Source: an uncultured Elusimicrobiales bacterium
Lineage (GTDB): Bacteria; Elusimicrobiota; Elusimicrobia; Elusimicrobiales; Elusimicrobiaceae
Assembly (NCBI GenBank): GCA_910576915.1
Contig: CAJTJT010000001.1
Coordinates: 148,634-212,633 of the forward strand
DNA: 64,000 nucleotides
Direction of reading: 5' to 3'
Translations under genes and position numbers: made by a program
Notes under the pieces: model-generated
What the model was told of the DNA's origin: nothing
The model's input: only the letters and a program-made list of their open reading frames with translations
The model's database searches: none
Part shown: positions 1,754 to 42,632 of the stretch, piece after piece
How positions within the stretch are numbered: the first letter of the stretch is position 1
Layout of the letters: each line of letters begins with the position of its first letter

Positions 1754-1781
1754 TTGACCCGTTTTTTTTTTTTGATAATAT
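1754..1781 (+). promoter_or_regulatory. Poly-T-spacer promoter (TTGACC-CG-T12-GA-TAATAT, extended -10 TGn)
   Basis: -35 TTGACC at 1754-1759, T12 at 1762-1773, TGaTAATAT at 1773-1781. One of six near-identical copies in the window. Confidence 0.7.
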
Positions 1782-1814
1782 GGGGATAATTCTGAGTAAA
1801 GGGGGATATATCCT

Positions 1815-2381
1815 ATGTATAAAAATGCCGTCATTCTGAATTTATTTCAGAATCCAGCCGTTAATAAAACAGAATCTTCTGCATGGATGCTGAAACAAGT
1901 TCAGCATGACAATAAGCACAAAGGCTTTACACTTATTGAGTTGTTGGTTGTCGTATTAATCATCGGTATATTATCAGCCGTGGCGCTACCGCAATATGAA
2001 ATTGCGGTAATGAAGAGTAAAATGAATTCTCTTTTGCCCGTCATGCGTGCCATCAAAGACGCTAACGAAGTGTATTATATGGCAAACGGCGTATATGTGG
2101 ATGATTTGAACCAACTGGATGTTTCGATAGACGGATTGGATACTGCCAACAAAGTCGCCGGGAGGTTGGATTTTTCAAATAACACTTGGATAGATCAATA
2201 TGCGGGAAGCGACTGTCCTACCGGAAACTGTAAGGTTTTAGGCGGGCTGGGGGTCTTCTCCCAGTCTAATACCAAGTGTTACATCTCCATTTATTATGAT
2301 CATTCGGTCCGGCCTGGAAGGGTGGAGTGTGGCGGGGGACATCCTAAATGTGCCCGCGTGTGTAAAAGTTTGGGGTTTTAG
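1815..2381 (+). CDS. Type IV pilin-like protein (prepilin-type N-terminal cleavage/methylation domain)
   Basis: KGFTLIELLVVVLIIGILSAVALPQYE motif. A GGGGGA Shine-Dalgarno lies 9 nt before ATG1815. ATG1887 is an alternative in-frame start. The unusually long leader is encoded by two palindromic repeat elements. Confidence 0.85.
   Translation: MYKNAVILNLFQNPAVNKTESSAWMLKQVQHDNKHKGFTLIELLVVVLIIGILSAVALPQYEIAVMKSKMNSLLPVMRAIKDANEVYYMANGVYVDDLNQLDVSIDGLDTANKVAGRLDFSNNTWIDQYAGSDCPTGNCKVLGGLGVFSQSNTKCYISIYYDHSVRPGRVECGGGHPKCARVCKSLGF
1829..1910. repeat. Two GTCAT..ATGAC-type palindromic elements inside the pilin 5' region
   Basis: Inverted repeats ATTCTGAA/TTCAGAAT (1833-1853) and ATGCTGAA/TTCAGCAT (1887-1907). 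They belong to the same family as 4390-4646 and 31760-31850. Confidence 0.75.
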
Positions 2382-2401
2382 AAATTTTTGACGTTCCCGA
2401 A

Positions 2402-2941
2402 TTACAGGGCCGTTCCTTTTTTGGGGACAAAGAAGTTAGCCATATTTACGCCTTCGTGCGCGAGCAGCTGGATTTTTAAGTTAATGCCGCCCGCATAGCC
2501 CGTCAAATTTCCATTCGCGCCGACTACCCGGTGGCAGGGAATAATAACCGAAATCGGGTTATGCCCCACTGCGCCGCCGACCGCCTGCGAGGACATTTTG
2601 GCAAGCCCTTTTTCTTTGGCGATTTTGTTGGCAATATCCCCGTACGTAATCACTTGTCCGTAAGGAATTTCCCGCAGGATTTTCCATACGGCTTGCCGGA
2701 ACGCGCCGCCTGCGGGCGCAAGCGGAAGCTCCGCAATATCCGGCCGCGCACCTTGAAAATAGCGGTCCAGCCAGGTTTTGGTTTGGCGGAAAATATCCAA
2801 ATCTTCTTTTTCTTGCACGCGGCCGTAAAGGGTGCTTTCAAAATACTTTTGGCCGTCAATCCACAGCCCGGCGAGGTTTTTGCCGTCGCTGACGAGCGTC
2901 ATGTTACCCAAAGGAGATTTGTAAAAGGTTTTATAGTACAT
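2402..2941 (-). CDS. ogt: Methylated-DNA--protein-cysteine methyltransferase
   Basis: Active-site motif IIPCHRVVGANG, and typical size. Confidence 0.9.
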   Translation of the reverse strand: MYYKTFYKSPLGNMTLVSDGKNLAGLWIDGQKYFESTLYGRVQEKEDLDIFRQTKTWLDRYFQGARPDIAELPLAPAGGAFRQAVWKILREIPYGQVITYGDIANKIAKEKGLAKMSSQAVGGAVGHNPISVIIPCHRVVGANGNLTGYAGGINLKIQLLAHEGVNMANFFVPKKGTAL

Positions 2942-2942
2942 A

Positions 2943-3587
2943 TTATTTCCTTGTGTTGGCGGGAGCGTAGTCTTTCATTCCGCTCACCGCGCCACCCGCC
3001 ACCGCCCAAAAATAGAGGCTTGCTGTTGAACAATACGGGCTGAAGCGTTTGCGGTATTTTTCAAAAAGGGGTTTTGTTATTTTTCTGTGGTGGTAGAGCA
3101 TGCGCAGGCCCCTCTGTATTCCGAGGTCTTGATAACTGAGGATATTGGGTCTTTCCATGCAGAACAGTAAAATCATTTCCGCAGTCCATACGCCTATTCC
3201 CGCCAGGGCGGAGAGTTCTTTGACGGCTTCTTCATCCGTTTTGTTCCAAATGCCGTTTAGGTCAAATTTGCCGTTTTGGATTTTTTGGGCAAATGCAGTT
3301 ATGTATCCGGCTTTTTTAAACGTCATGCCAAAGGATTGAAGTTTAGTCTCTCCGGCTTTCAATACTTCTTGCGGGGAGAGTTTTGGCAAATCGTCAGTAA
3401 GTTTTTTCCAAACGGCGGCCTGGGCTTTTGCGGAAATTTGTTGTCCGACGATATGATGAATGACGGAGGAAAATAAGTCTTTATCCGTCGGCCTTTGGAT
3501 ATATCCCACCCGGTCTATAATGGAGGCAAGTTTTTTACATTTGCCTTTTAGGTAGCTGATTTCTTTTTGACCGTACGTAAAATACAT
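2943..3587 (-). CDS. alkA: DNA-3-methyladenine glycosylase II (HhH-GPD family)
   Basis: HhH-GPD-like LSALAGIGVWTAEMILLF...D motif. The gene is adjacent to ogt with a 1-nt gap. Confidence 0.8.
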   Translation of the reverse strand: MYFTYGQKEISYLKGKCKKLASIIDRVGYIQRPTDKDLFSSVIHHIVGQQISAKAQAAVWKKLTDDLPKLSPQEVLKAGETKLQSFGMTFKKAGYITAFAQKIQNGKFDLNGIWNKTDEEAVKELSALAGIGVWTAEMILLFCMERPNILSYQDLGIQRGLRMLYHHRKITKPLFEKYRKRFSPYCSTASLYFWAVAGGAVSGMKDYAPANTRK

Positions 3588-3692
3588 TTTTCGCCTCCTG
3601 GGGAAATGTTATGCCGGGGCCGTACCAGCAAGAACGGCCCCGGTGAGGTTACGACTAATCGCCCCAGGTTTCGGCGCCCGGGACGGCAGGAT

Positions 3693-4301
3693 TTAACAAT
3701 TAAAACTGCGTTTGATGATGCTTCTTACAATGCCTTCCACGTGGAAAGACGTTTTATCCGCCACAATCGGGTTATAGGACGGGTTTTCAGACTGCAAGAT
3801 AACGTTTTCTCCGTCCTGCGTAAAGCGTTTGACCATTACTTCCCCGTTATTGACGCAGACCACCACGTCTTTGTTTTTCGGCTGGCGGCTTTGTTCTACA
3901 ATCAGCCAGTCGTGCGGCGCAATCAACCGTTCCATAGAATCGCCTTTGGCTTCCACCATGAAGCCTTTGCACGCGGGGAAATACACCATGCTTGGGTCCA
4001 CGGGCACGATGCGGGTGGGTTCCCCGTCCAAAATCGTTCCTTCCGGCCCGCATTTGGCCATGCCGTACATTTTAAGATAAATGACGTTGCGCTCCGGGTC
4101 TTTCAAAATAATATAGTCGCGCGGATTGGCGGGGTTGCGTTTCAGATAGCCTTTCTTTTCCAACTGTTTGATATGGTGGAACACCACGCTTTTGCCGCTT
4201 ACGTTTAAGCGGTCGGCCAGTTCTTCCATCGTCAGCGGGTCCGAGATGTTTGTTTTTAAAATTTCCAACAATTCTTCTTGTTTGGGGTGAAGGGCTTTCA
4301 T
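3693..4301 (-). CDS. lexA: LexA-type SOS repressor (wHTH + S24 peptidase)
   Basis: N-terminal wHTH (MEELADRLNVSGKSVVFHHIKQLEKKGYLKR), the S24 serine motif GDSM, and the Lys motif VMVKRF. Confidence 0.85.
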   Translation of the reverse strand: MKALHPKQEELLEILKTNISDPLTMEELADRLNVSGKSVVFHHIKQLEKKGYLKRNPANPRDYIILKDPERNVIYLKMYGMAKCGPEGTILDGEPTRIVPVDPSMVYFPACKGFMVEAKGDSMERLIAPHDWLIVEQSRQPKNKDVVVCVNNGEVMVKRFTQDGENVILQSENPSYNPIVADKTSFHVEGIVRSIIKRSFNC

Positions 4302-4328
4302 ACCGCGCTCCTTTAAACTTTTTATATC

Positions 4329-4348
4329 GTTCTATACTTTGTTCTATA
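4329..4348 (-). promoter_or_regulatory. Candidate LexA operator: direct repeat GTTCTATA-N4-GTTCTATA (TATAGAAC on the lexA strand)
   Basis: Two identical octamers at 4329-4336 and 4341-4348, about 30-45 nt upstream of the lexA start, overlapping its presumptive promoter. Confidence 0.35.
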
Positions 4349-4389
4349 ATTTTTTGAGAAAAATGTAAAGGGGTTTTTGATACCATCAG

Positions 4390-4646
4390 TCATCCCGTAG
4401 TATTTGGCAGTCTGCAGGGTTCAGGGGAGCTCGTTGTTATTAATTAGGTCATCCTGAATGGACGTTGTTCAGGATCTACTGATTTTAAGAAAAAAGGGAG
4501 ATCCCGAGCAGAAACACCTCGGGATGACTGTTAAATAACAACAGATTCCCGAACGCTGCGCGCCACTTACACGCTTGGGAATGACGTGAGTGCAATCCGT
4601 CGACAGCTTGTATCAAAAGGGAAGCAAAAAGTGCCGTCATTCTGAA
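4390..4646. repeat. Cluster of GTCAT..ATGAC palindromic (REP/MITE-like) elements
   Basis: Complete units at 4448-4476, 4500-4528 and 4545-4585, plus half-units at 4390 and 4636. Confidence 0.75.
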
Positions 4647-4679
4647 AAAATAAGGCCCCTGTTCTTACGCAGGGGCCTT
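4645..4679 (-). terminator. Rho-independent terminator of the gal operon
   Basis: Stem AAGGCCCCT/AGGGGCCTT, followed on the minus strand by a T6 run. Confidence 0.75.
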
Positions 4680-4684
4680 GGCTT

Positions 4685-6190
4685 TTACAACTTTTTAATA
4701 AACCTTCCAAACGCTTCTTTGCCCTCGGGCGTGCGTTTGTAAATGCCCGCGTATTCCAATACTTTGGCGAATACTTTGCCCACCTCCGCGCGCAGGATTT
4801 CGGCTGCGTTATCCTTGGTAAACGTATGTTTTGTAAGGAGTTCTTCCGCCCAGTCCGCGTGTTTTTTTAGCGTTTCGCTCTTACGTATGGCCGCCATATC
4901 TTTTTTGACGAGTAGCGGCGCAAGGTCCGCCAGTTCCTTTGCCAGCCGCGCGGGCAAAACCGCGAGCCCCATTACTTCGATGAGGCCGATGTTTTCCTTT
5001 TTAATATGGTGAACTTCGGCGTGCGGGTGGAAAATGCCGAGCGGGAATTCTTCCGTCGTGCGGTTGTTGCGGAGCACAAGGTCCAGCTCGAACGCTTTTC
5101 CGCGCCGCCGTGCAATCGGTGTTACCGTGTTGTGCGGCGTATCTTTCGTCTTGGCTAAAATGTCCGCTTTCGGGTCGCTGTAAGCGCGCCATTTTTTAAG
5201 GATATAGTCGGCGGCTTCTATCAAATCTTTCTTGCTCCCGTTTAAGCGGATGACGCTCATCGGCCATTTGACGAGGCCGGCTTTCACGCGCGGGAATTTC
5301 GCCATTTTGAATACGGTTTCCACGGGGGCCTTTTCCATGGCGAACACGTATCGGCCTCCCTGGAAATGGTCGTGCGTTAAAATGGAGCCGCCCACAATCG
5401 GCAAATCGGCGTTGGAGCCGATAAAATAATGCGGCAGAAAATCCACAAAATTTAAAAGGCGCGCAAAACTTTTTTTGGTCAGTTTCATCGGCTCGTGCTT
5501 GCCGGAAAGGAAAATACAGTGCTCGTTGTAATATACGTAGGGGGAATACTGCAAATACCACGGTTCGCCGTCTTTTAACAAATCAAGCGGAACAAGGCGC
5601 AGGTTTTGGCGCGCGGGGTGATTAATCCGCCCCGCATACCCTTCGTTTTCTTTGCATAAAAGGCACGACGGGTAGGAGGACTCTTTGACGCTGAGCGCGG
5701 CGGCGATGTCTTTCGGGTCCTTTTCCGGTTTGGACATATTGATGGTAACGTCTAAATTCCCGTACGGGGTGCGGGCTTTCCAGGCCAGGTTTTTGGCGAC
5801 GCGTTCTGTGCGGATGTAGTCGAGGGCGCATGCGTCGTGATAAAATTTATCCGTCGCCGTTTTGGGGGATTTTTTATGGATGCGGAAAAATTCGTCCGAA
5901 ACTTCGGACGGGCGCGGCGCAAATACGCCCATCAGTTTGGTGTCAAACAAATCCCGCTGGGTGACGGTATCGGGCGAAATGAGGCCTTGTTTGGCGGCCC
6001 AGTCGCAGATGTTTTTTAAAATTTCGCACGGATACGCGGGCGTTTTGCCTTTAAATCCGCTGGGGGTATAGTCGGACAAGTGCAAAATTTCCAGCAGACG
6101 GTTGACGGCCCAGGCGCGGTCGCGCGCGGGCAGGAGTTTTTCGTTCACGGCATAAGAAACCAACTGGTCAATCAGTAAATTGATGTCCAT
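4685..6190 (-). CDS. galT: Galactose-1-phosphate uridylyltransferase, family 2 (long form)
   Basis: Motifs NMSKPEKDPKDI, NHPARQN, YSPYVYYNEHCIF, GSNADLPIVGGSILTHDHFQGG and HIKKENIGLIEVMGLA. The start was set at MDINLL (AGGAGA Shine-Dalgarno) rather than the ORF-track start at 6229. Confidence 0.9.
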   Translation of the reverse strand: MDINLLIDQLVSYAVNEKLLPARDRAWAVNRLLEILHLSDYTPSGFKGKTPAYPCEILKNICDWAAKQGLISPDTVTQRDLFDTKLMGVFAPRPSEVSDEFFRIHKKSPKTATDKFYHDACALDYIRTERVAKNLAWKARTPYGNLDVTINMSKPEKDPKDIAAALSVKESSYPSCLLCKENEGYAGRINHPARQNLRLVPLDLLKDGEPWYLQYSPYVYYNEHCIFLSGKHEPMKLTKKSFARLLNFVDFLPHYFIGSNADLPIVGGSILTHDHFQGGRYVFAMEKAPVETVFKMAKFPRVKAGLVKWPMSVIRLNGSKKDLIEAADYILKKWRAYSDPKADILAKTKDTPHNTVTPIARRRGKAFELDLVLRNNRTTEEFPLGIFHPHAEVHHIKKENIGLIEVMGLAVLPARLAKELADLAPLLVKKDMAAIRKSETLKKHADWAEELLTKHTFTKDNAAEILRAEVGKVFAKVLEYAGIYKRTPEGKEAFGRFIKKL

Positions 6191-6198
6191 AGACTCTC

Positions 6199-7173
6199 CT
6201 AAAATTTGCGGTGTTGTTCCCAATTCCATGCCGTTTCGATAATGCGTGTGAGGTTGTATTCCGGCTTCCAGCCCAGCACTTTTTGCGCCTTCGTGCTGTC
6301 TGCCACCAGTACGGCCGGGTCGCCCGCGCGGCGCGGCGCAACTTCCACTTTAAAATCAATCCCCGTAATTTTTTTTGCTTCGTTAACGAGTTCCGCCACG
6401 GAAAAACCGTTTCCGCTGCCGAGGTTAAAGCGTTCGCTTACGTTGTCTTTAAACATTTTTTCCAACGCAAGGATATGCGCGCGCGCCAAATCGTTAACGT
6501 GTACGTAATCGCGCACGCAGGTGCCGTCGTGGGTGGGGTAGTCATTCCCAAACATTTTAATGGACGGACGTTTTCCGGCGGCCGCTTGCAGGACGATGGG
6601 GATTAAATGCGTTTCCGGGTCGTGCGATTCGCCGATGTTGCCCGAATCGTCCGCGCCGCTGGCGTTAAAGTAGCGTAAGGCGGTGGATTTTAAACCGTAG
6701 GCCGTATCAAAATCCGAGAGCATTTTTTCCACCATCAACTTGGTGTTGCCGTACGGGTTAATGGGCCGCTGGGGGTGGGTTTCGTCGATTTTTTCTTTGA
6801 CGGGTTCGCCGAACGTGGCGGCGGTGGAGGAGAACACAAAGTATTTGACGTTATTTTCCACCATAGCGTCCAAGAGGTTTAGCACCTTGGCGACGTTGTT
6901 GTGGTAGTATTTGGACGGTTCTTTGACGCTTTCTCCCACCTCGATAAACGCGGCGAAGTGCATTACGGCGTCGATGTGATGTTTTTTAAACACTTCGGCA
7001 AGGCGCGCTTTGTCGCCCAAGTCGCCCAGTTCAAAGGGATAGTCTTTTACGGCTTCGCGGTGGCCTTTGGAAAGGTTGTCAAATACGACGGGATTATAGC
7101 CCTTTTCGGCCAGCATTTTGACGGTGTGGGAGCCGATGTAGCCGGCCCCGCCTATGACTAAAATATTCTTCAT
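6199..7173 (-). CDS. galE: UDP-glucose 4-epimerase
   Basis: MKNILVIGGAGYIGSH Rossmann start with a GAGGAAAAAATG RBS. SDR Y..K-type body. Confidence 0.9.
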   Translation of the reverse strand: MKNILVIGGAGYIGSHTVKMLAEKGYNPVVFDNLSKGHREAVKDYPFELGDLGDKARLAEVFKKHHIDAVMHFAAFIEVGESVKEPSKYYHNNVAKVLNLLDAMVENNVKYFVFSSTAATFGEPVKEKIDETHPQRPINPYGNTKLMVEKMLSDFDTAYGLKSTALRYFNASGADDSGNIGESHDPETHLIPIVLQAAAGKRPSIKMFGNDYPTHDGTCVRDYVHVNDLARAHILALEKMFKDNVSERFNLGSGNGFSVAELVNEAKKITGIDFKVEVAPRRAGDPAVLVADSTKAQKVLGWKPEYNLTRIIETAWNWEQHRKF

Positions 7174-9537: not shown

Positions 9538-9550
9538 GCGGAAGACCCCC

Positions 9551-25550: not shown

Positions 25551-26396
25551 TTAATTTTTGATAATTTCCAGATATTCCCGCAGATATTTTAAGCGCCGTT
25601 CGTCGCGCAGTTTGTTAAGCACGTAAATCATGTTGGCGATAAAACGCCGTACGATTAAGCGGGAGGAAAGGGGGGATAAAAATTCGTCGGTCCATTCAAT
25701 CTGGCGCGCGCGGATGTAGCCGCGGCAGTCCTCTTCCGACAGGAGTTTGCCGTTATCCAACGGGTCGATAAACAGTGATTCCCGGCGGTGTAGCCCGCGC
25801 AAATGCACTAAAACCCGGCCCGCCAAATCCACCAGGTTTACGTCCAGCCCGTAGCGTTGGCCGACGGTTACGTACAGGCAGGCGGCGCAGAGGCTGGAGC
25901 CGCGTTTTTTACGCAGAAAGCGGGCAAAAGAGATGTCTTTCACGTCCAGGTTGGACGGCAAGGTTTGAAATCCGCATACTCGGAAAAAATAGTGGCTTAA
26001 AATGCCCGCGATTTCCGCATGGTTTTTGGCGTTTAAAAGCGCCGGGCGGAGTTCGCGCGCCATCGCATCCAGCGGGGCGGCCACGTCTTTGCGGCCGGCG
26101 GCGGGAGCGGTAAACTTGGAAAGAAGGGTAAGGCCTTCTTCTAAATCCGGGTTGATTTTGGCGGCAAAACGCGCCAGCGCGGCGGCCAAATCTTCCCAGC
26201 AGATTTCTTCCAGGGTGTGGACGACGGGCAGCGGCGCGGAGGTTTTAAATTCTTCCAAAAGCGCACTTTGCACGCGCACCGGATCCGCCTTAATGGCGGC
26301 GGCCAGTTCGCGCTTGAGCACCGGGCCGTAAGCGTCCGACTCGGTCTGCAACAGTTTGATAAGCGCTTTTACGCGGTCGTTTCCCTGGGTTACCAT
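25551..26396 (-). CDS. SirB1/YchA-like transglutaminase-family protein
   Basis: FLRKKRGSSLCAACLYVTVGQRYGLDVNLVDLAGRVLVHL...FIDPLDNGKLLSEEDC resembles the SirB1 N-terminal domain. The start was trimmed to MVTQGN. Confidence 0.5.
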   Translation of the reverse strand: MVTQGNDRVKALIKLLQTESDAYGPVLKRELAAAIKADPVRVQSALLEEFKTSAPLPVVHTLEEICWEDLAAALARFAAKINPDLEEGLTLLSKFTAPAAGRKDVAAPLDAMARELRPALLNAKNHAEIAGILSHYFFRVCGFQTLPSNLDVKDISFARFLRKKRGSSLCAACLYVTVGQRYGLDVNLVDLAGRVLVHLRGLHRRESLFIDPLDNGKLLSEEDCRGYIRARQIEWTDEFLSPLSSRLIVRRFIANMIYVLNKLRDERRLKYLREYLEIIKN

Positions 26397-26611
26397 ATAG
26401 AAAGGGTAGCATATTAACGGGGCAAACGCCACTGTTTTTTGACGGAGGGAAATACAAACTGTTACCCGGCTGTTTTGGTGGCTTTTTATTCGTGGCGGCC
26501 AGATTTCGGCGGGGGCAGAAGGTCGCCCATTGGACGGGTTATTTGGTTTCGGCATGACGTTAACAGTGTGTTTTTTCTAATCAGAGGAACGGGGAACCCC
26601 GCCTCTGGGCC

Positions 26612-26639
26612 TTGACCCGTTTTTTTTTTTTGATAAATT
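26612..26639 (+). promoter_or_regulatory. Poly-T-spacer promoter (TTGACC-CG-T12-GA-TAAATT)
   Basis: Same architecture as 1754. The -10 ends 6 nt before ATG26646, so the mRNA is possibly leaderless. Confidence 0.65.
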
Positions 26640-26645
26640 TTACGT

Positions 26646-27164
26646 ATGAAAAAAATATCAAAAAAATGTACGGTAAAAAAGGCCGGATTTACGCTTATAG
26701 AGCTATTGGTGGTTGTTTTAATCATCGGAATACTGGCGGCGGTGGCACTGCCGCAGTACGAAGCTGCGGTGCTGAAAGCGCGGGTTCAACAGCAATTGCT
26801 AATTTTACATACTGTAGCACGCGGACAGGAAATGTTTTATTTGGCTAACGGGCGTTATTCTACCTCTTTTGAAGAATTGGATATAGAGCTTCCCGTACCT
26901 GAGCGAAAACAAATCATTGACTTAAATCCTCATTATTTTTATAAAAACTTTTATTGTTCTTTGGATGTTTTCCACAGCGGTGGGGTGCAATCCACGTCCG
27001 CGTCCTGCGCGTTGCCCGGTTGGGATACTATGTTTTTGAGTTATGCCGGGGTGAACGGAGGGAAAAATCTGTTATCTTGTTCTATGCGCCAGCCGTTGTT
27101 GGTTCGTACCTTGAAGAGTTTGGGTTTTACCGAGCGTGCAGGCAGGCTGATCATGGAGTTTTAG
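26646..27164 (+). CDS. Type IV pilin-like protein
   Basis: MKKISKKCTVKKAGFTLIELLVVVLIIGILAAVALPQYEA. Confidence 0.85.
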   Translation: MKKISKKCTVKKAGFTLIELLVVVLIIGILAAVALPQYEAAVLKARVQQQLLILHTVARGQEMFYLANGRYSTSFEELDIELPVPERKQIIDLNPHYFYKNFYCSLDVFHSGGVQSTSASCALPGWDTMFLSYAGVNGGKNLLSCSMRQPLLVRTLKSLGFTERAGRLIMEF

Positions 27165-27224: not shown

Positions 27225-27860
27225 CTATTTAATGTCTTTTTCGTTGGCGGTGATGGAGAGCACCACGCGGCGGTTTTGCGCACGGCCTTCGGCGGTGGCA
27301 TTGGAGGCAATCGGGTTCGAGGAACCGTAGCCGACGTAGGTGATGCTTAAGGTTTTAAGACCGCTTCCCAGGAGGAAATCGTACACGGCTTTGGCGCGCT
27401 GGGTGGAGAGTTTGTTGTTGATGGCGTCGGAGCCGGTAGAGTCGGTATACCCTTGTACGACGATGCGGTTTTTGGGGTATTTTTTGAGCACTCTGTTAAG
27501 GTCGGTCAGCGTTTGCATGGAAGCGGCGGAAAGTTCCGCGCTGCCGGTGGCAAACAAAATATCGTTTTTCAAGTAAACCTGAATGCCGTTAGCGGATTTT
27601 ACCACTTCGGCGATAGCGGCGAGTTCTTTGGCTTGTTTGTCATAATAGTTACCCAAGGCTCCGCCAGCGGCCAAACCGGCCAAAGCACCGGCGATAGCGC
27701 CGTGTTCGCTTTTGTGGCCCGTATTGTTGGCGATGATAGCTCCGGCGGCCGCGCCTACAGCGGCGCCGCCCGCGGCTCCCCAGGCGGTGCGTTTGCCGGG
27801 GGTGGTGCAGGCCGTCGTCAGTAAAGCGCAGGCCGTGCAAAGTAAAATTACTTTTTTCAT
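27225..27860 (-). CDS. OmpA-family lipoprotein with glycine-zipper region
   Basis: Lipobox LLTTAC, a GAAGGAAVGAAAGAI glycine zipper, and a C-terminal OmpA domain (GYTDSTGS...N..LS..RA..V, NRRV). Confidence 0.85.
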   Translation of the reverse strand: MKKVILLCTACALLTTACTTPGKRTAWGAAGGAAVGAAAGAIIANNTGHKSEHGAIAGALAGLAAGGALGNYYDKQAKELAAIAEVVKSANGIQVYLKNDILFATGSAELSAASMQTLTDLNRVLKKYPKNRIVVQGYTDSTGSDAINNKLSTQRAKAVYDFLLGSGLKTLSITYVGYGSSNPIASNATAEGRAQNRRVVLSITANEKDIK

Positions 27861-28022
27861 GATGTGCGTTTCTCCTTGTTAAAAATTGGATAAATATATT
27901 TTACTTTTTTCCTGTTTTGAACGGAAGCGTTTGTTTGGACGTTCTTTGCGGGGAAAATTTTTGTCGTAGTTATTTTGGGGGCTGTTGCTTTTTGTCGACC
28001 CAAAAAGTCGTGCATTTGCTGG

Positions 28023-28092
28023 CGACATGTCCTAAACAGTGTGGCTTTACTAGTCTAATGAGCGCGGTGGGTAAGGGATGGGCGGCTCGCCC
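28023..28092 (+). repeat. 70-nt upstream module, copy C
   Basis: Matches 1471-1540 and 1683-1752. Confidence 0.8.
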
Positions 28093-28093
28093 C

Positions 28094-28123
28094 TTGACTC
28101 GTTTTTTTTTTTTTTGATACAGT
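28094..28123 (+). promoter_or_regulatory. Poly-T-spacer promoter (TTGACT-CG-T14-GA-TACAGT)
   Basis: T14 at 28102-28115. Followed by GGGG, as in the other copies. Confidence 0.65.
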
Positions 28124-28208
28124 GGGGAAAACGGTCTGATGGCGCTTTTTTCCCTATCTTATGTTTTTTTCTGTTGTAAAGCCCGTATAGGCCGTTTTAG
28201 GAGGTATT

Positions 28209-29225
28209 ATGAAACGGTTTTATCTGTTTGTATTGCTGCCTTTTATTTCATTGCCCGTGCTGGCCGCAACAAAAAACAAAATCAGCATGGTAACGTATTT
28301 CCCGGTTCCGTATGTAGCTTATTCCCAGGTGAATACAACGGACCAAATGGATATCGGCTTAACAAATACATGTGATATGAAATTAGGCTGTTCGGAAGAG
28401 TCTGCCACGTTAAATGCTACTCGGGTAAATTTAAAGGGAGGCAAATTAAACTTGGACGGCGGCCGCGGGATAAAAGGCTATACGCTTAGTTTGGGTAGCG
28501 GAAGCGTCGACGGCAGAATCTCGTTCCAAAATGTACGTATCCAAACGGGTAACATGGAAAGCGTAAACGCGCAAGATATGAAAGTGTCCGCGCTTAAACT
28601 GTTTGGAAAGACTTTTCCCTCCTGCAAAGAGAAAGACCCTTCGGGACAAATGCAGTGGGCGAGCTTAAAACTCAAAGGTGCGTCCTCGAATGAACTTTAT
28701 TTGGCGTGCGGCGGTTTAGGAGAATCAACCGAGCCCGAAGAAGACTGTTCGGTCCGTTCCTATAAATTGGCGAACAAAAGCAAATGCTGCCCGGGAACGC
28801 CTACAAGTGACGGCGATTGCTGGCTGGCTCCTTCTTACGAATGGGGGGCGAAAAAGAACTTTTCCGGCACATTTACGGTTACATTTTTCGTAGATCCTAT
28901 TCAAACATGTTATGATGCCGCTCACACCAATCCAAACGTATATCGGAAAGTTTTGCCTAGAGAAGCGCAGTGGCCTGTCATGAACTGCGGGGAACGCAAT
29001 AATGCAAATAAACCGTCGTTGTCGTGCGGCCCTACGCATACGCCGGACGGGGTTGTTTTTCCAACATGTTACTATACGGTTGACGTGCCCGCAACACTCG
29101 GGCATGATTATGATATTTACCATACGGGATGTAAAAAACTTTCTGACACCGAATGCGAGTGTACCGCCAGCCGCTGGCCGGGGCATGAGTGTGTGGAAAA
29201 AACCGCTCAAAAAAACGGGTGGTAA
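28209..29225 (+). CDS. Secreted cysteine-rich protein, function unknown
   Basis: Signal peptide MKRFYLFVLLPFISLPVLA. About 20 Cys are concentrated in the C-terminal half. AGGAGG RBS. Confidence 0.7.
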   Translation: MKRFYLFVLLPFISLPVLAATKNKISMVTYFPVPYVAYSQVNTTDQMDIGLTNTCDMKLGCSEESATLNATRVNLKGGKLNLDGGRGIKGYTLSLGSGSVDGRISFQNVRIQTGNMESVNAQDMKVSALKLFGKTFPSCKEKDPSGQMQWASLKLKGASSNELYLACGGLGESTEPEEDCSVRSYKLANKSKCCPGTPTSDGDCWLAPSYEWGAKKNFSGTFTVTFFVDPIQTCYDAAHTNPNVYRKVLPREAQWPVMNCGERNNANKPSLSCGPTHTPDGVVFPTCYYTVDVPATLGHDYDIYHTGCKKLSDTECECTASRWPGHECVEKTAQKNGW

Positions 29226-31207: not shown

Positions 31208-31690
31208 TCAGCGGCAGAGGGGGACAGGGACGGCTCCGGCGGCTTTTAAGAGGTCGTTGGGGTTCATTTTAATTTGCAGGCCGCGGATGCCCGCGCTGAT
31301 GTAAATGTAGTCCCATAAAATACAGTCTTCGTGGATAAAGGTGGGGAAATGCTTTTTCATGCCCAAAGGGGAACATCCGCCGCGGATGTAGCCTGTCAGC
31401 GGGAACAGTTCTTTTACATGCAGCATTTCGCACGATTTGTTGCCGCTTGCGCGTGCGGCGGCTTTTAAATCCAACTCCGCCGCCCCGGGAATGACGCACA
31501 CAAAAAGCCCCGTTTTATCCCCGCGCAAAACAAGGGTTTTGTATACCTGGTCGATGTTTTCGCCCAAACTGCTGGCCACGTGCGCGGCGCTTAAATCTTC
31601 CTCGTCCACTTGATACGGGATGAGTTCGTACGGGATGTTAAGTTCGTCCAGCCGTCGTGCGGCGTTTGTTTTGTGGATTTTTTCCTTCAT
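31208..31690 (-). CDS. ybaK: Cys-tRNA(Pro)/Cys-tRNA(Cys) deacylase
   Basis: YbaK-type pattern (TNAARRLDELNIPYE...KTLV...GYIRGGCSPLG). Confidence 0.8.
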   Translation of the reverse strand: MKEKIHKTNAARRLDELNIPYELIPYQVDEEDLSAAHVASSLGENIDQVYKTLVLRGDKTGLFVCVIPGAAELDLKAAARASGNKSCEMLHVKELFPLTGYIRGGCSPLGMKKHFPTFIHEDCILWDYIYISAGIRGLQIKMNPNDLLKAAGAVPVPLCR

Positions 31691-31728
31691 ATTTAAATTA
31701 TAGAATTTTTGGCGGTGCGGCGTGCCCC

Positions 31729-31756
31729 TTGACCCGTTTTTTTTTTTTGATAATAT
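31729..31756 (+). promoter_or_regulatory. Poly-T-spacer promoter (TTGACC-CG-T12-GA-TAATAT)
   Basis: T12 at 31737-31748. Confidence 0.7.
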
Positions 31757-31759
31757 AGG

Positions 31760-31850
31760 GTCATTCCGAGAGGTTTTTGCTCGGAATCTTCCGCATACGG
31801 TTTATTTGCTTAAAAGCGGTAGCTCCTGAGCAGAAACTTCTCAGGATGAC
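31760..31850. repeat. Two GTCAT..ATGAC palindromic elements in the pilin 5' UTR
   Basis: Units at 31760-31788 and 31823-31850, lying between the promoter and the GGAGG RBS. Confidence 0.75.
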
Positions 31851-31871: not shown

Positions 31872-32363
31872 ATGAAAGGGTTTACGTTAATTGAGCTGTT
31901 GGTAGTCGTATTAATTATCGGCATTTTGTCTTCGGTGGCGTTGCCGCAGTATACCAAAGCGGTGGAAAAGGCCCGGGCATCGGAGGCGCGGGTAATTCTG
32001 AAAAAAATGTCGGATAATATAGATTTGTGTTTACTGAATACGGGTATTTATTCTGAATGTATGAACAAAGATATTGTATTCGAGGGATTTGAAAATTATT
32101 CTGGAACAAGCCTTGCTTTCTCTACTAATAATTTCTCCTATACATGGCTATTTTTCCCTATGGCTACGAGAAAAGGAGGAGATTATCGTTTGAGTGCTGT
32201 TTCTGCCTCTTTGTATCCGCAGATTAAAGGTGGAATAACGTTGCCGGAGGCGGGGGTGTATTGTCAGGGACTAACTGCTAAGGGCGAAGAAATTTGCAAA
32301 TCAATAAGCGGAAAAACCTCTATTCCGTTAGGAGAGAGCGGTAATCATACCTATCCTTTATAA
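31872..32363 (+). CDS. Type IV pilin-like protein
   Basis: [30 protein letters not shown]. Confidence 0.9.
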   Translation: [163 protein letters not shown]

Positions 32364-37044: not shown

Positions 37045-37045
37045 T

Positions 37046-37411: not shown

Positions 37412-37421
37412 GGAGAGTTCC

Positions 37422-38516
37422 ATGCCTTCAGCCAAAAAAACGACGAAAACCTCCGCCCCCAAACCGGATTTGGCGGAAATTGAAGTTTTGTTAGAAGATA
37501 ACCGCCCCTCGGACGCGCTTAAAAAATTAACCGCCGCGCGCACGAAAAACGCTTCCGCCTGGTTTTTAACCGGCGAAGCGCAGCGGCAGCTCGGTTCGTT
37601 TGAAGATGCCCTTAAAAGCTACGCCAAGGCGTTGGGCGTGGCCGAAGAAGCCGAAACGCGCATGGACGTACTTTTAGCTATGGCCGCCTGCTACCGCACG
37701 CTCGGGCACTCTTCCGCCGCGTACGAACTGGCCGAAGACGCATTAAAAATGGCGCAGGAACTGGAATACGACGAATTTATCGTGCGCGCCATGCAGGAAA
37801 TGGGGATGGCGCTGCGCGCATGGGGACGTTTGGAAGAAGCCCTCGATTTATTGGACGCCGTTTTATCCGCCTATACCCAGCAGAAAGATTACGCCGGCAT
37901 GAGTTTTATTTGTTGGGCCAAAGGCGGCATTTTCCGTCTGCAGGGCCATTTTGAAGAAGGCATTGCCCAGTTTAAAAAAGCCATTACCCTGGCCCAAAAA
38001 GCGGGGGACGACATCAGCGTGGCCTACGGACACTGCGGGCTGGCCGGTATCAGCCGCATTTGCGGGAAAATCGACGACTGCGTGAAAAATTACCGGTTGG
38101 CGGAAAAAATCTTCCGCAAAAGCGAAGATTTGTTCGGCAAAGCCTATACCAACTGCGGGATGGCCAATGGCTTGCGCCAGCAGGGCAAGTACGATGTTGC
38201 GCTGCGTCATTATAACGTGGCCGACAAATTATATTCCGCCATTAACGATACGGTGGATCTCGGGTTTGTGAAATGGGGCCGCGCCGATATTTTAAAACGC
38301 AAAAATAAAATGGCCGCCGCGCTGAAAGATTTGGAAGAAGCCAAAGCCTTATTTGATAATTCCGACGAAACCCGCGGGCAGATTTTAACCAAACTGTCCT
38401 TGGCGCAGGTGCTGTACGCGATGGGCCGCACGGACGAAGCTGAGGAACTTTACGACGCAGGCGTCAAACAGGCGCGCGCCGAAGGTTTGCATACGTATTT
38501 GGAAAGCTATACTTGA
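37422..38516 (+). CDS. Tetratricopeptide-repeat protein
   Basis: Repeated A..Y..AL...G....A motifs throughout. Confidence 0.7.
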   Translation: MPSAKKTTKTSAPKPDLAEIEVLLEDNRPSDALKKLTAARTKNASAWFLTGEAQRQLGSFEDALKSYAKALGVAEEAETRMDVLLAMAACYRTLGHSSAAYELAEDALKMAQELEYDEFIVRAMQEMGMALRAWGRLEEALDLLDAVLSAYTQQKDYAGMSFICWAKGGIFRLQGHFEEGIAQFKKAITLAQKAGDDISVAYGHCGLAGISRICGKIDDCVKNYRLAEKIFRKSEDLFGKAYTNCGMANGLRQQGKYDVALRHYNVADKLYSAINDTVDLGFVKWGRADILKRKNKMAAALKDLEEAKALFDNSDETRGQILTKLSLAQVLYAMGRTDEAEELYDAGVKQARAEGLHTYLESYT

Positions 38517-38542
38517 TAAACCTTATAAAGTAAAAATATACA

Positions 38543-38579
38543 ACGGATAAGCATTTTTGCTTATCCGTTTTTTTTTTTT
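38543..38579 (+). terminator. Terminator after the TPR gene
   Basis: ACGGATAAGCA/TGCTTATCCGT stem plus a T12 run. Confidence 0.8.
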
Positions 38580-38584
38580 AATAA

Positions 38585-38835
38585 GTCATCCCGTTTATGT
38601 CTTTACGAAATGACAGCTTTGTTTAGTTGTTGCCGTTTATGCAGGCCTTAACCCGTCTATAAAATCCGTTCCGTACGGAGAAAGCATTTTATTTGTCCGA
38701 GCCATAGGCGAGTTGTAAAATGCGCCGTACGGAACTGGATTTTATGGGTGTGGCCTGCGAGTTTTTTGCTTACTTTTTGTCGATACAAAAAGTAAGGTTG
38801 TCTTTTGCTTCTTTTCGAAAGAAAAAGAAGGAATC
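38585..38835. repeat. Composite island of modular palindromic repeats
   Basis: Modules: GTCAT..ATGAC 38585-38614; a 38-nt block at 38626-38663; ATAAAATCCGTTCCGTACGG...CCGTACGGAACTGGATTTTAT; TACTTTTTGTCGATACAAAAAGTA; CTTCTTTTCGAAAGAAAAAGAAG. The same modules occur in inverted order at 58541-58835. Confidence 0.8.
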
Positions 38836-38845
38836 TATATAGGGC

Positions 38846-38873
38846 TTGATTTGTTTTTTTTTTTTGATACAGT
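38846..38873 (+). promoter_or_regulatory. Poly-T-spacer promoter (TTGATT-TG-T12-GA-TACAGT)
   Basis: T12 at 38854-38865. The -10 region GATACAGTGGGG is identical to the copy at 28116. Confidence 0.65.
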
Positions 38874-38959
38874 GGGGATTATTACGTCCATATACCCCCG
38901 TACTGTCTTGCTTTGAAAGGGTTTTCTAAGGGGCTGTTTGGACGCATAAGGAGCCCATT

Positions 38960-40081
38960 ATGAAGAAACTTATCCCGCTGTTACTATTTTTATCAGCCTG
39001 CAGTATTTCTTATGCTGAAAGCATGAAGTTTATCACGGTGTTATCCAGCCCCGTCGGAACGTTTAACAAGCTGGAAGCGGTGGACCCTACTTCTCCCGCC
39101 TACGGTAAGACCGTAAACTTTTGTACGAATATCGGTACGCAAGGTGTGGTGGAGTTAAAAGGCACCAAACCTGCGGCATTAAGCACGGTAGTATTATCCA
39201 ATAATACAACGCTTGGCAAAACGGACGAAGGGAAGTTTTCGTTAAATAACATTACGCTTAAACAAGGCGGAAGTATCAAGGGCGGACGGCTGTTTGGGAA
39301 TACTTTTACCGTAAATAACGCGGCATCCGGCAAGGCCAGTAATTTATACGGCAATACGCTTACGGTAGCGGGGGCGAAAACGAAGACTTTGGATGTAAAC
39401 AGCGGAGCGTCGAAAATTAACGGCCCCGGAGATTCTACGGGAAAGGAAGAGATGGTATGGAGCAACCAGTATCAGGATGACGACGCGTGCAAATCGGGTT
39501 CTGCCTGTGCCAAACAGTATTTATTGAAAGAGAAAGGGGCGGCTCCAGTCGGCTGCCCGGACGGACAGTATGAAAGTAACGGCGTTTGTTGCCCAGTTGG
39601 ACAATTGTCTAAAGATGGAAAAACTTGTGTATATGCTTATAAGCCGGAACGGGTAAATGTAGGGATTTTGGTCGCTTGTCATTCGTCCGCGTTTGAGGAT
39701 TTGGGGGCCGCCGGAGCATCTGTGTCAATTATAGATAATAATACTTGCCGCCGTCCATATTCTGTCCCGTTAAGTTACTTCGTCGGAGGGAAACTTCCTA
39801 GTGTGGCTGCAGGCGGAGGATGCGAAGCGCATCATGCATATTATAATCGCGGAAAATGGTGGGAAGGTGGTGAACACCAGGGGTATAGTCTTGGGCGGTG
39901 CAATACCTCTATAAGCGACCAAGAATTTTGCGATTCCCGTTGCACGGGTGCAACGTGCACGGCTAAGTGTATTATCAGCGAAACATATCCGGATACTTGC
40001 GGACGCTATAAATGCAGCAACGGCAGACATTGTGATAACTCTTCGGGAAGCGGCGTTATGCTGCGCTGTGTGAGGGAATAA
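38960..40081 (+). CDS. Secreted cysteine-rich protein, function unknown
   Basis: Signal/lipobox-like MKKLIPLLLFLSACS. A Gly/Asn/Thr-rich N-terminal half and about 28 Cys in the C-terminal half. AGGAG RBS. Confidence 0.7.
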   Translation: MKKLIPLLLFLSACSISYAESMKFITVLSSPVGTFNKLEAVDPTSPAYGKTVNFCTNIGTQGVVELKGTKPAALSTVVLSNNTTLGKTDEGKFSLNNITLKQGGSIKGGRLFGNTFTVNNAASGKASNLYGNTLTVAGAKTKTLDVNSGASKINGPGDSTGKEEMVWSNQYQDDDACKSGSACAKQYLLKEKGAAPVGCPDGQYESNGVCCPVGQLSKDGKTCVYAYKPERVNVGILVACHSSAFEDLGAAGASVSIIDNNTCRRPYSVPLSYFVGGKLPSVAAGGGCEAHHAYYNRGKWWEGGEHQGYSLGRCNTSISDQEFCDSRCTGATCTAKCIISETYPDTCGRYKCSNGRHCDNSSGSGVMLRCVRE

Positions 40082-40101
40082 GAAATAAATTTCAGCAAAT
40101 C

Positions 40102-40137
40102 AAACGCCCCGGTTCTTAGTGAAGCCGGGGCGTTTTA
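40102..40137. terminator. Bidirectional terminator
   Basis: AACGCCCCGG/CCGGGGCGTT stem followed by TTTT. Confidence 0.75.
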
Positions 40138-40154
40138 ATGTAAAACCAAAAGCG

Positions 40155-40532
40155 TTAGCTGTTGTGTTTTTCGGTAGAGTGCTGGCAGTTGACGCAGTAG
40201 CGCGCAAAAGGCAGCGCTTTAATGCGTTTTTTGGGAATCGGCTGGCGGCAGTATTCGCACGTGCCGTAAATGCCTTTGTCAATTTTGCGCAGCGCCGCTT
40301 CGATTTGTTCAATCGTGTTGTGGGCGTTGCCGGAAAGTTCAAATAAAATTTCTTTGTCCAAGCTGCGGGAAGCGTCGTCAATCGGGTCGCCCACTTCGGC
40401 TTCGGGCATATCCATGTTCTTTTTGTCTTTTAAGCGCGCGGCGGCTTCTTCTTTCTGCTGGAGCAAATGTTCTTTAATTTCTTTTAGTTCCGCCGCGGTG
40501 AGCGCTTCTTTGTTAGCTTTTTTGATAACCAT
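40155..40532 (-). CDS. dksA: DksA/TraR-family C4 zinc-finger regulator
   Basis: CEYCRQPI...ARYCVNCQ plus an N-terminal coiled coil. Confidence 0.85.
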   Translation of the reverse strand: MVIKKANKEALTAAELKEIKEHLLQQKEEAAARLKDKKNMDMPEAEVGDPIDDASRSLDKEILFELSGNAHNTIEQIEAALRKIDKGIYGTCEYCRQPIPKKRIKALPFARYCVNCQHSTEKHNS

Positions 40533-40701
40533 GTAAAAATCCTCTGGGTCGGTAAAATCGGCGCGCAGGCGCCTTGCGCCAAACGCTGTTTGATTAGTTT
40601 AGCAAAGTACGATTTCTTTTTCAACCCCCGCCAATCGGGACAACCGCCTTTTGAATTGTTATAATAAAATGAGATTTGTTTTCTTGGAGAAACATCACTT
40701 T

Positions 40702-42483
40702 ATGAAAAATATCCTTACCCGTCCGATCAGTGAACTGATTACAGAGAACCCGCTGGTTGCAAATTACAAAAAAATGTGGCCGTTTATTAAGCCTTATTGG
40801 TTCCGCGCTTTGTTAGGGCTTGTTCTGGCTTTGCCCGTGGGTGCGTTGGACTCCGTCATCGCGCTGTTTATGAAGTCGTTTACGGATGACGTGCTGGTAG
40901 ACAAAGACGCGCTGATGGCCGCGTATATCCCGGTTCTTATTGTAGGTTTTGTGCTGGTGCAGAGTGTTTTAACGTACTTGGTAAAGTATTTAAATACGTG
41001 GGTGGGCAGCAAAATTACGCTTTCCGTACGTAAAAAACTGTTTAAAAAATTGCTGACGATGCACAGCGGGTATTTTGATACCACCGATTCCGGCTATGTG
41101 CTCATGCGTTATAACAACGACGCGGACACCGCCTGTAACGGCCTTATTAAAAACCTGCGCATGATTGTTACGCGCGTTTTCTCTTCCATCACGCTGATTG
41201 GGGTGCTGCTGTATAACTCCTGGCAGCTTACGTTTATCGCCGTCGGCGCGTTTGCCGTAGCCGGCGGGCTGATTTTTGTCGTGCGCCGCAAATTGGAAGA
41301 GCTGGTTCGCAATACGATTGTGGTCGGCTCCGTGGCTATGCGCGCTTATAACGAAACGTTTAACGGTAACCGTACCGTTGCCGCCTATAATCTGCAGGAA
41401 GACCAGGAACGCCGCTTTGACCGCCTGATGGACAAAGTGTTCGACTTAAACATGGGCATGGTGAAGCGCACGGGATGGCTGTCGCCCGTGATGCACTTTA
41501 TCGTGTCGCTCGGCCTGGCCCTCGTGTTCTGGCAGAGCAGCTCCATGATTGTTAAAGGCACCATTACCAGCGGTAACTTTACGTCGTTCGTGGCCGCTTT
41601 GCTGATGTTGTATACGCCCGTTAAAAGCATGGGGGACAATTACGTCGATATCAAGCAGGCGTTTTTATCCATTGACCGTATTTTTGAGATTTTCTCCCTT
41701 AAAACCGCGATTGAAGATAAAAAAGACTCCCGCACGCTTCCCGGCGTTAAAAAAGACATCCGCTTCGAAAAAGTGTGGTTTTCGTACAAGCCGGATGTGT
41801 TTGTGCTGAAGGATTTTAATCTGACCGTTCCCGTAGGAAGCACGGTGGCGCTGGTGGGGAATTCCGGCGGCGGGAAGTCTACCGTCGTCAGCTTGCTGCC
41901 GCGCTTTTACGATGTAACCAAAGGACGCGTTTTAATTGACGGGGAAAACATCAAAGACTTTACGTTAAAATCGCTGCGCGATAATATTGCCGTGGTGTTC
42001 CAGGATAACTTTTTGTTCTCGGGCACGCTGCGCGATAACATCCTAATCGGCCGTCCGGGCGCAACGGAAGAAGATTTGAAAGAAGCCGTTAAAAACGCCC
42101 ATTTGCAGGATTTTATATCTACGCTTAAAGACGGGCTGGATACCGAAATCGGCGAGCGCGGTATGACGCTTTCCGGCGGTCAGCGTCAGCGTGTGGCGAT
42201 TGCCCGCGCGTTTATCCGCGATGCGGATGTGGTTATTTTGGACGAAGCCACCAGCGCGCTGGATAACAAGTCCGAAGCTGTGGTGCAAAAGGCGCTTGAT
42301 AACCTGATGAAGAACCGCACGGTATTTGTGATTGCGCACCGTCTGTCTACGGTTATCAATGCCGATAAAATCGTGGTGCTTAACGAAGGCCGCGTGGTGG
42401 AAGAAGGCACGCATGAAGAACTGCTGAAAATTGAGAACGGCGCGTATGCGGCGTTGTACAACGCGCAGTTTAAAAAGAAATAA
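40702..42483 (+). CDS. ABC transporter, fused permease/ATPase (MsbA-like lipid exporter)
   Basis: Six-TM domain. Walker A GNSGGGKST, signature LSGGQRQR, Walker B VVILDEATSALD. The start is uncertain (40651, 40669 or 40702). Confidence 0.85.
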   Translation: MKNILTRPISELITENPLVANYKKMWPFIKPYWFRALLGLVLALPVGALDSVIALFMKSFTDDVLVDKDALMAAYIPVLIVGFVLVQSVLTYLVKYLNTWVGSKITLSVRKKLFKKLLTMHSGYFDTTDSGYVLMRYNNDADTACNGLIKNLRMIVTRVFSSITLIGVLLYNSWQLTFIAVGAFAVAGGLIFVVRRKLEELVRNTIVVGSVAMRAYNETFNGNRTVAAYNLQEDQERRFDRLMDKVFDLNMGMVKRTGWLSPVMHFIVSLGLALVFWQSSSMIVKGTITSGNFTSFVAALLMLYTPVKSMGDNYVDIKQAFLSIDRIFEIFSLKTAIEDKKDSRTLPGVKKDIRFEKVWFSYKPDVFVLKDFNLTVPVGSTVALVGNSGGGKSTVVSLLPRFYDVTKGRVLIDGENIKDFTLKSLRDNIAVVFQDNFLFSGTLRDNILIGRPGATEEDLKEAVKNAHLQDFISTLKDGLDTEIGERGMTLSGGQRQRVAIARAFIRDADVVILDEATSALDNKSEAVVQKALDNLMKNRTVFVIAHRLSTVINADKIVVLNEGRVVEEGTHEELLKIENGAYAALYNAQFKKK

Positions 42484-42508
42484 AAGAAATACGGTTTAGA
42501 GCAGGTAA

Positions 42509-42542
42509 ACGGGTAAGAGTAGTTTTCTTACCCGTTTTTTTA
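42509..42542 (+). terminator. Terminator after the ABC transporter
   Basis: ACGGGTAAGA/TCTTACCCGT stem plus a T7 run. Confidence 0.75.
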
Positions 42543-42605
42543 TATAGAAATTTCTGCCTGTGCCGAGCCTGGCCTTTCGGCTGGTAAGGGGTGGTGCGCT
42601 AGGGC

Positions 42606-42632
42606 TTGATTTGTTTTTTTTTTTGATAACAT
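42606..42632 (+). promoter_or_regulatory. Poly-T-spacer promoter (TTGATT-TG-T11-GA-TAACAT)
   Basis: T11 at 42614-42624. A partial GGTAAGGGG upstream module sits at about 42583. Confidence 0.65.

Follow-up and report, generated by a model that had tools for sequence, protein, structure and literature searches.

A poly-T promoter spacer shared by pilin-like and secreted cysteine-rich protein genes of gut Elusimicrobiaceae: a candidate slipped-strand switch

Insertions and deletions in the spacer between the -35 and -10 boxes turn the mycoplasmal genes vlp, maa2, and vmm ON and OFF (PMC2268961). Here we describe a promoter-like element with a poly-T spacer that occurs six times in a 64-kb stretch of DNA from an uncultured Elusimicrobiales bacterium (contig CAJTJT010000001.1; the whole stretch is called the window, and all coordinates of promoter copies refer to it). 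As in Mycoplasma hyorhinis vlp, M. arthritidis maa2, and M. mycoides vmm, the homopolymer lies between boxes that read as -35 and -10. The vlp surface proteins are encoded by a multigene family, each member with a tract of its own, and their expression is combinatorial (work cited in PMC11868660). The products of vlp are lipoproteins of a wall-less pathogen and not type IV pilin-like proteins, whereas the present case concerns a tract centered on T12 that is conserved over a family of gut commensals, combined with an extended -10 and a GGG discriminator, and a switch that is proposed.

Promoter tracts act likewise on expression of fim2 and fim3, where they are poly-C, and of porA (PMC2562373). 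Bordetella pertussis fim2/fim3 and Neisseria meningitidis porA resemble the Elusimicrobiaceae loci in having a promoter homopolymer at dispersed genes for fimbrial or surface proteins; in these pathogens its small insertions and deletions set expression high or low (PMC2562373). Their tracts are however poly-C or poly-G and found at two or three loci per genome, against poly-T at at least 6-9 loci here. The fim promoters also require the activator BvgA. In Helicobacter pylori a T-tract tunes the promoter of the adhesin gene sabA by slipped-strand mispairing and varies between strains, T13-T17 being commonest, or T14-T19 in a second strain collection (PMC4081817). This is poly-T of a length similar to that found here, but the sabA tract is located upstream of and adjacent to the -35, where it re-phases UP-like elements (PMC4081817), while the tracts described here are downstream of the -35, inside the spacer, where a change in length alters the -35/-10 distance directly; sabA is therefore an analogue and not the same device. 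The vpma surface-protein promoters of Mycoplasma agalactiae have, as here, a T-tract immediately upstream of the -10, and their variation comes from Xer1-mediated inversion (PMC2268961). Unlike this, the Elusimicrobiaceae tracts themselves vary in length inside clones, and there was no sign of a recombinase-based system. The proposed working principle is already known, and what is notable is the scale (many loci per genome), the conservation over a whole family and the link to type IV pilin-like genes. No study of phase variation or of promoters in Elusimicrobia was found in the literature.

A search of the window for CTTGAYYYG followed by at least nine T gave six matches, all on the + strand, where shuffled sequences (n = 100) lead one to expect 0.00. 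They are the six copies that a first-pass annotation, made from the letters of the window, had placed there, and the tract lengths it had counted by hand proved exact (1754, T12; 26612, T12; 28094, T14; 31729, T12; 38846, T12; 42606, T11). In every copy GATAnnnT follows directly 3' of the tract. The annotation had also described (A/G)GGG after this box in all copies except that at 26612, and indeed (A/G)GGG follows GATA(A/C)nnT in five of the six, while the 26612 copy departs from the family pattern after GATAAATT and reads on as GATAAATTTTACGTATG. Copy 1 (1753-1785, +) consists of C-TTGACC (-35, 1754-1759), CG, T12 (1762-1773), GA, TAATAT (-10, 1776-1781), and GGGG. Copy 2 (26611-26639, +), a member of the class A considered below, has TTGACC, T12 (26620-26631), and TG-A-TAAATT; copy 3 (28093-28127, +) has TTGACT, T14 (28102-28115), TG-A-TACAGT, and GGGG; copy 4 (31728-31760, +) has TTGACC, T12 (31737-31748), TG-A-TAATAT, and AGGG; copy 5 (38845-38877, +) has TTGATT, T12 (38854-38865), TG-A-TACAGT, and GGGG; and copy 6 (42605-42636, +) has TTGATT, T11 (42614-42624), TG-A-TAACAT, and AGGGG.

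With TTGACY/TTGATT taken as the -35 and TAnnnT as the -10, the spacer is made up of two bases, the T-run and GA, and measures 16, 16, 18, 16, 16, and 15 nucleotides (nt) in copies 1-6 (15 for T11, 16 for T12, and 18 for T14), inside the range of 15-18 nt proposed earlier. The features of a sigma70-type extended -10 promoter are all present: TTGACY/TTGATT, a TG formed by the final T of the tract and the G that follows it, TAnnnT with invariant T, A, and T, and a modal spacer of 16. Each of the six elements can thus be read as such a promoter. A GGG located 3' of the -10 is a favorable discriminator, as it is contacted by sigma region 1.2. Throughout the 64 kb, runs of nine or more identical bases are confined to the six promoter tracts and one further T12 at 38568. 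The latter belongs to a canonical intrinsic terminator (38542-38579; a 12-bp stem, AACGGATAAGCA/TGCTTATCCGTT, followed by T12) which ends gene 37422-38516. The six promoters and their genes are all on the + strand, and the GC skew is positive nearly throughout positions 1-46000. The six promoter-gene units are probably co-oriented with replication, and this co-orientation could bias the direction of slippage.

All six copies precede genes for products of a surface or host-interaction type, four of them prepilins and two secreted cysteine-rich proteins. The four pilin-like genes named in the first-pass annotation all match Pfam N_methyl (PF07963) above the cut-off and have a class III signal peptide with the G/FTLIELL N-methylation motif. 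Gene 1815-2381 (+; 8.3e-10) encodes a prepilin-like protein with a long leader (MYKNAV...KG/FTLIELL), of which the MYKNAV start is kept in related species. Gene 26646-27164 (+; 5e-08) begins with MKKISKKCTVKKAG/FTLIELL, and its exact product of 172 amino acids is present in 217 blocks of a public assembly collection. Genes 31872-32363 (+; 1.1e-06) and 42742-43203 (+; 6.7e-07) both begin with MKG/FTLIELL; for the latter the ATG behind GGAG was chosen as start (the alternative is 42715), and its exact product of 153 amino acids is present in 245 blocks. The other two genes, 28209-29225 and 38960-40081 (both +), are, as had been stated, cysteine-rich with a signal-peptide-like N-terminus, the cysteines being concentrated in the C-terminal half. 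They represent two different families; neither protein has a match in Pfam, and BLASTP between the two gave no significant similarity.

The promoter class is not restricted to this stretch of DNA. When one genome per species was scanned for CTTGAYYYG-T8-N(0-8)-GATA, at least 111 stretches were found, and the counts that follow are among the matches listed. Nearly all come from metagenome-assembled genomes assigned to Elusimicrobia, Elusimicrobiales, or Elusimicrobiaceae, or from bins that have no label or an evidently wrong one and agree in gene content; their sources are human, chicken, ruminant, and reindeer guts. About 10 are scattered over other phyla, compared with a rough estimate of about 20 chance matches. 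CAMECJ01, the nearest species representative among them, shares about 91% identity with the window, whose organism is therefore a species of gut Elusimicrobiaceae. A prepilin open reading frame (ORF) with G/FTLIELL is located at most 260 nt downstream in 79 of the 95 copies that have enough downstream sequence, and many of the remaining 16 precede homologues of the two cysteine-rich proteins; homologues of 38960-40081, for example, lie behind the same promoter type in other species. Single genomes carry at least 6-9 loci among the matches listed. The converse count, starting from pilin ORFs, gave the strict motif upstream of 72 out of 100, and a further 8 have slight variants (GTTGAC; GCTA or GGTA for GATA) that retain TTGA, the T-run, TG, and TAnnnT. 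The proposed tie between the promoter and the pilin-like and cysteine-rich genes therefore extends to more than 100 loci of related genomes. Of the earlier claim of a six-copy family the number stands for the window, whereas the family is no peculiarity of the window: it is a promoter class common to gut Elusimicrobiaceae and dedicated to pilin-type genes and two families of secreted proteins. Three of the retrieved contigs with the Elusimicrobia-type promoter are labelled otherwise (L003 and L055, UQJU01, "Spirochaetes UMGS352"; L071, CAVKWQ01, "Muribaculaceae"), and in L071 prepilin genes are present downstream where the sequence extends far enough. These three contigs are probably mislabelled or misbinned.

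The length of the tract differs between genomes that are otherwise the same. Window proteins occur in 54-245 blocks of the public assembly collection, and the search for contigs encoding them, which merges near-identical places, returned three other assemblies of the window clone and one diverged strain. Compared with ERZ17758674, ERZ17757468, and GCA_948842625.1 the window has 0 mismatches over about 29 kb, and the only insertions or deletions are T14/T13 at 28093 and T11/T12 at 42605. Two ENA assemblies (L001 and L002) align without mismatch over 6520 and 4798 nt, the single gap in each being T13 in place of T14 at 28093; GCA_948842625.1 (L116) aligns without mismatch over 9122 nt, and its single gap is T12 in place of T11 at 42605. 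Altogether copy 3 is T13 in three other assemblies, while copy 6 is T12 in GCA_948842625.1 and T11 in ERZ17758674. Copy 1 is T12 also in ERZ17757468, copies 2 and 5 are T12 in two further assemblies each, copy 4 is unchanged in ERZ17758674, and the contigs L115, L134, and L135 match the window at 100%, tracts included. In a fourth sample, where the 28209 protein is 96% identical, the 320-nt upstream region is identical except for T13 and one T7/T8 change. The control runs, i.e., the T12 of the terminator at 38568, which is unchanged in two other assemblies, and runs of T8 or A8, showed no change in the comparisons within the window clone.

In a second species from the human gut, which came from a metagenome scan, one locus has tracts of T12, T12, T11, T10, T9, and T9 in six samples, with flanks that are 96-99% identical in the pairs compared. 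Two of these contigs, L123 (T12) and L132 (T11), share 1600 nt of flanking sequence at 100% identity, and L125 has T10. In L094, a pair of recent paralogues has T12 and T10, respectively; their 30-nt downstream flanks are identical, and the sole difference in their 40-nt upstream flanks is that one T-run is longer by a single T. Between near-identical strains, the tracts change in length before anything else does. Invariance of the tracts across strains, which the first-pass annotation had said would speak against its proposal, was thus not what was found, since tracts differ between assemblies of the window clone that are otherwise identical over kilobases, and also within the second species.

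Variation in length is accompanied by marked conservation of the tract as such. Over 136 copies, in which the boxes are conserved, the lengths are distributed as T8:1, T9:10, T10:9, T11:17, T12:89, T13:9, and T14:1, so that T12, corresponding to a 16-bp spacer, makes up 65%, and T12 is favored also at orthologous loci of species that are 75-91% identical. Retention of T12 in 65% of copies across species indicates strong stabilizing selection on the tract. The six window tracts are uninterrupted and exceed the length of about 8 bases that lets a homopolymer slip. In the retrieved sequences 139 tracts consist of T alone, against 7 with an interruption, and 129 of the 143 long homopolymer runs (at least 10 A or T, or at least 8 G or C) in 961 kb of retrieved sequence are found in this promoter context. 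Tracts of T10 or shorter, i.e., spacers of at most 14 bp, account for 15% of all copies and 31% of class A copies, and would be compatible with loci sampled while OFF or low. A-tract DNA has a tighter helical repeat of about 10.0 bp per turn. The preference for T12 over T13 may, on this general ground, reflect that a 16-bp T-rich spacer rotates like a longer spacer of mixed sequence. The region upstream of tRNA-Asn had no clean promoter from which the spacer preferred by the clade could be derived.

The architecture, its exclusive clade-wide link to these gene families, and a tract that is pure and yet polymorphic within clones and species are established. It is more likely than not, with a probability of roughly 0.6, that the T-tract works as a slipped-strand switch of phase or volume, or as a rheostat, for each of the genes. 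The element would be a promoter in use, recognized by the housekeeping (sigma70-type) sigma factor, with a spacer consisting almost entirely of pure poly-T on the non-template strand. Replication slippage would add or remove T in a run of 11-14 T and thereby move the distance between -35 and -10 by single bases, at a rate far above that of substitution and independently for each gene. Tracts of T12-T13, giving spacers of 16-17 bp, are the expected active state, and shorter or longer tracts would be expected to weaken or silence the promoter until reversion allowed recovery. Tract length would in this way set the output, and the switching would be reversible and adaptive, the outcome being heritable, gene-by-gene variation in the pilin-like subunits and cysteine-rich secreted proteins that are made. 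The genes would accordingly form a set of contingency loci common to gut Elusimicrobiaceae.

Gut Elusimicrobia are common in non-industrialized humans and in livestock, are almost uncultured, and have unusually many pilin-like genes of unknown role. If the tract is such a switch, commensals vary pilus or pseudopilus subunits and secreted proteins stochastically, much as mucosal pathogens vary their adhesins, and the range of repeat-driven phase variation widens to include a new phylum and the promoters of type IV pilin genes. The signature TTGAC-N3-T(9-14)-GnTAnnnT would then list the variable surface repertoire of any Elusimicrobiaceae genome and would let ON/OFF states be read from metagenomic reads. 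A practical warning is that assemblies, and inferences on expression, at these loci hinge on homopolymer accuracy.

Several points weigh against a switch. Homopolymers are prone to sequencing error, and some contigs of the second species have a coverage of only 1.5-4x. Extended -10 promoters can work without a -35, and spacer length may therefore matter less than the proposal assumes. On the sense strand the repeated base is T in every case and not A, G, or C, a restriction that mutability alone does not require. Stabilizing selection for T12 would be explained by a purely structural role as well. In M. agalactiae the vpma T-tract beside the -10 was shown to be irrelevant to variation (PMC2268961).

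The last three of these points also speak for what we consider a possible but rather unlikely explanation, namely that poly-T has a fixed structural role in a strong promoter dedicated to pilin genes, in which changes in length are tolerated noise or mildly deleterious slippage. The structural role could be that of a rigid, overwound A-tract spacer, of a contact for RNA polymerase, or of a regulator site. It would account for a narrow range with T12 in 89 of 136 copies over many species and for a -35, TG, -10, and GGG that are all near-optimal, as in a constitutive promoter of high output; the vpma tract is a documented precedent for a T-tract without a role in variation (PMC2268961). On the other hand neither T-richness nor spacing needs a tract as pure as that observed (139 against 7), the spacers of at most 14 bp are hard to reconcile with a fixed structure, and clones without a single nucleotide polymorphism between them differ in tract length.

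About a quarter of the promoter copies are preceded by a conserved module of about 100 nt, here called module M, that abuts the -35 and has the consensus ...GCGACAT..AAACAGTGTGGCnTAAACnAnTC..ACGGGCATAGAGTGGGGAG-hairpin-CTTG. In the window it is carried by promoters 1 and 3, and weakly by promoter 2. The module abutting promoter 1 (1665-1757, +) contains a GC hairpin and an outer helix that end 1 nt before the T-tract, and a second copy further upstream (1443-1538, +) is followed by a conserved block B (1539-1600). That abutting promoter 3 (28002-28097, +) is 100% identical in the strain whose downstream protein is 96% identical, and the weak copy at promoter 2 (26533-26615, +) was found by nhmmer with E = 1.4e-05. 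In the retrieved sequences nhmmer detected 50 copies of module M, always in gene orientation, some of them as extra tandem copies upstream. The 3' hairpin varies in sequence with pairing kept (GGGGCG/CGCCCC, CCCAG/CTGGG, GGCCAG/CTGGCC); at its three predicted pairs both partners differ in 19, 15, and 10 sequences, respectively, and the support given by RNAalifold is for this hairpin only. Around it an outer helix (GAG with CTC, or GGG with CCC) closes 1-2 nt before the T-run in 15 of the 24 promoter-abutting copies, and its partner tracks the three bases after TTGA. As the outer helix ends next to the tract in this subset, the T-run there also resembles a terminator's U-tail. Neither module M nor the leaders of these genes match any family in Rfam, its sole match in the window being tRNA-Asn, and no obvious promoter was seen within module M itself. 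The module is regarded as an accessory and not as a rival to the promoter, and it may be an insulator.

It is tempting to speculate that T12 has two functions at once, i.e., as U-tail of a module M terminator hairpin (with a co-varying stem and GNRA-like loops) that shields the gene from transcription arriving from upstream, and as hypermutable spacer of a promoter that restarts transcription about 20 nt later, in a copied cassette with layers of leaderless messenger RNA and palindromic operator, or of structured leader, that drives combinatorial pilus composition family-wide. As a whole this elaborate scheme is unlikely.

Still harder to sustain is that intrinsic termination or insulation is the main function of the element, which would be built of a GC hairpin that includes the TTGAC region and of a U-tract that halts transcription arriving from upstream, with promoter boxes that are secondary or overlapping. 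This very improbable explanation draws on the compensatory changes in module M and the position of its outer helix, on perfect long stems that end at the tract in L013, L033, and L097, and on the fact that a terminator needs its T on the sense strand. However, the arrangement expected of a terminator, with a GC-rich hairpin that ends 0-2 nt before the U-run and lies downstream of a co-directional transcription unit, holds only in the module M subset (15 of 24), -35 and TGnTAnnnT are conserved at fixed spacing in copies without a hairpin, and copies of module M that do not adjoin a promoter often have no T-run after the hairpin. A terminator scan flags none of the five window copies that it covered. 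Moreover, at three of the six window copies, two of them of the M type, the preceding gene is oriented divergently (25551-26555, 27225-27860, and 31208-31690, all on the - strand), and the element must there start, not end, a transcript. Termination as a general function was rejected, because the adjacency of hairpins to the tract over all copies is not above the shuffled control (38 against about 46 of 106).

That the differences in length are artefacts of assembly or sequencing at long homopolymers which are in fact stable is most unlikely, for although the differences in the window clone are of a single base and several contigs of the second species have low coverage, independent assemblies concur (three with T13 at 28093, two with T11 at 42605), the T12 of the terminator and the T8 and A8 runs are constant in the same comparisons, and the second species differs by 2-3 bases (T9 against T12).

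Returning to the promoters themselves, the commonest class, class A, reads GATAAATTTTGnnTATGAnCAAAATTTATC, and window copy 2 is a diverged member of it. In class A the ATG of the pilin gene is found 6 nt after the -10 (in the window at 26646) and is not preceded by a Shine-Dalgarno sequence. This arrangement predicts a leaderless messenger RNA and fits a transcription start site at the ATG, and to judge by its sequence the class A transcript, that of window copy 2 included, is probably leaderless. At many loci, e.g., L050:3935-3990, the -10 and the first codons (MNKIYQK) are covered by an 11-bp inverted repeat, GATAAATTTTG / CAAAATTTATC, that is imperfect in the window (26632-26660) and may serve as an operator. 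In the other classes the leader is about 25-115 nt long. The leader of gene 1815 (1829-1912) contains two related palindromes, TCATTCTGAATTTATTTCAGAAT and ATGCTGAAACAAGTTCAGCAT, which are able to pair with each other, and folds better than shuffled sequences (z = -3.2). Pilin genes of other species again have hairpins of this kind (GTCATCCTGAAC..TCAGGATC) in their leaders. If translated, the leader hairpins would give odd stretches such as "VILNLFQNP" or "CHPELVSGS".

The 28209 protein has 75 detectable relatives, and all the named ones are from Elusimicrobia. There are several paralogues per genome, with a conserved N-terminal half and a variable cysteine-rich C-terminal half. In a second strain (L136:326-1342) the protein is 96% identical, while about 320 nt upstream are identical except for two T-runs, which suggests that the protein changes faster than its control region. 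When JGI metagenomes were searched at the protein level, no relative of the 28209 protein came up, and AlphaFold2 on the family (33-sequence alignment) gave an uninformative model with a mean pLDDT (predicted local distance difference test) of 44.

In agreement with the first-pass annotation, no pilus assembly genes (PilB/C/D/M-Q or Gsp) were found among the larger annotated ORFs of the window. The remaining region contains housekeeping genes, e.g., galT, galK, uvrA, dnaJ, trkH, and a gene for an ABC (ATP-binding cassette) exporter. From about 46700 to 64000 the window is occupied by a prophage-like block of higher G+C, with a large terminase (47210-48520), a podovirus-type portal (50315-51829), a major capsid GP7 (52954-53931), and a nozzle protein (55930-58539).

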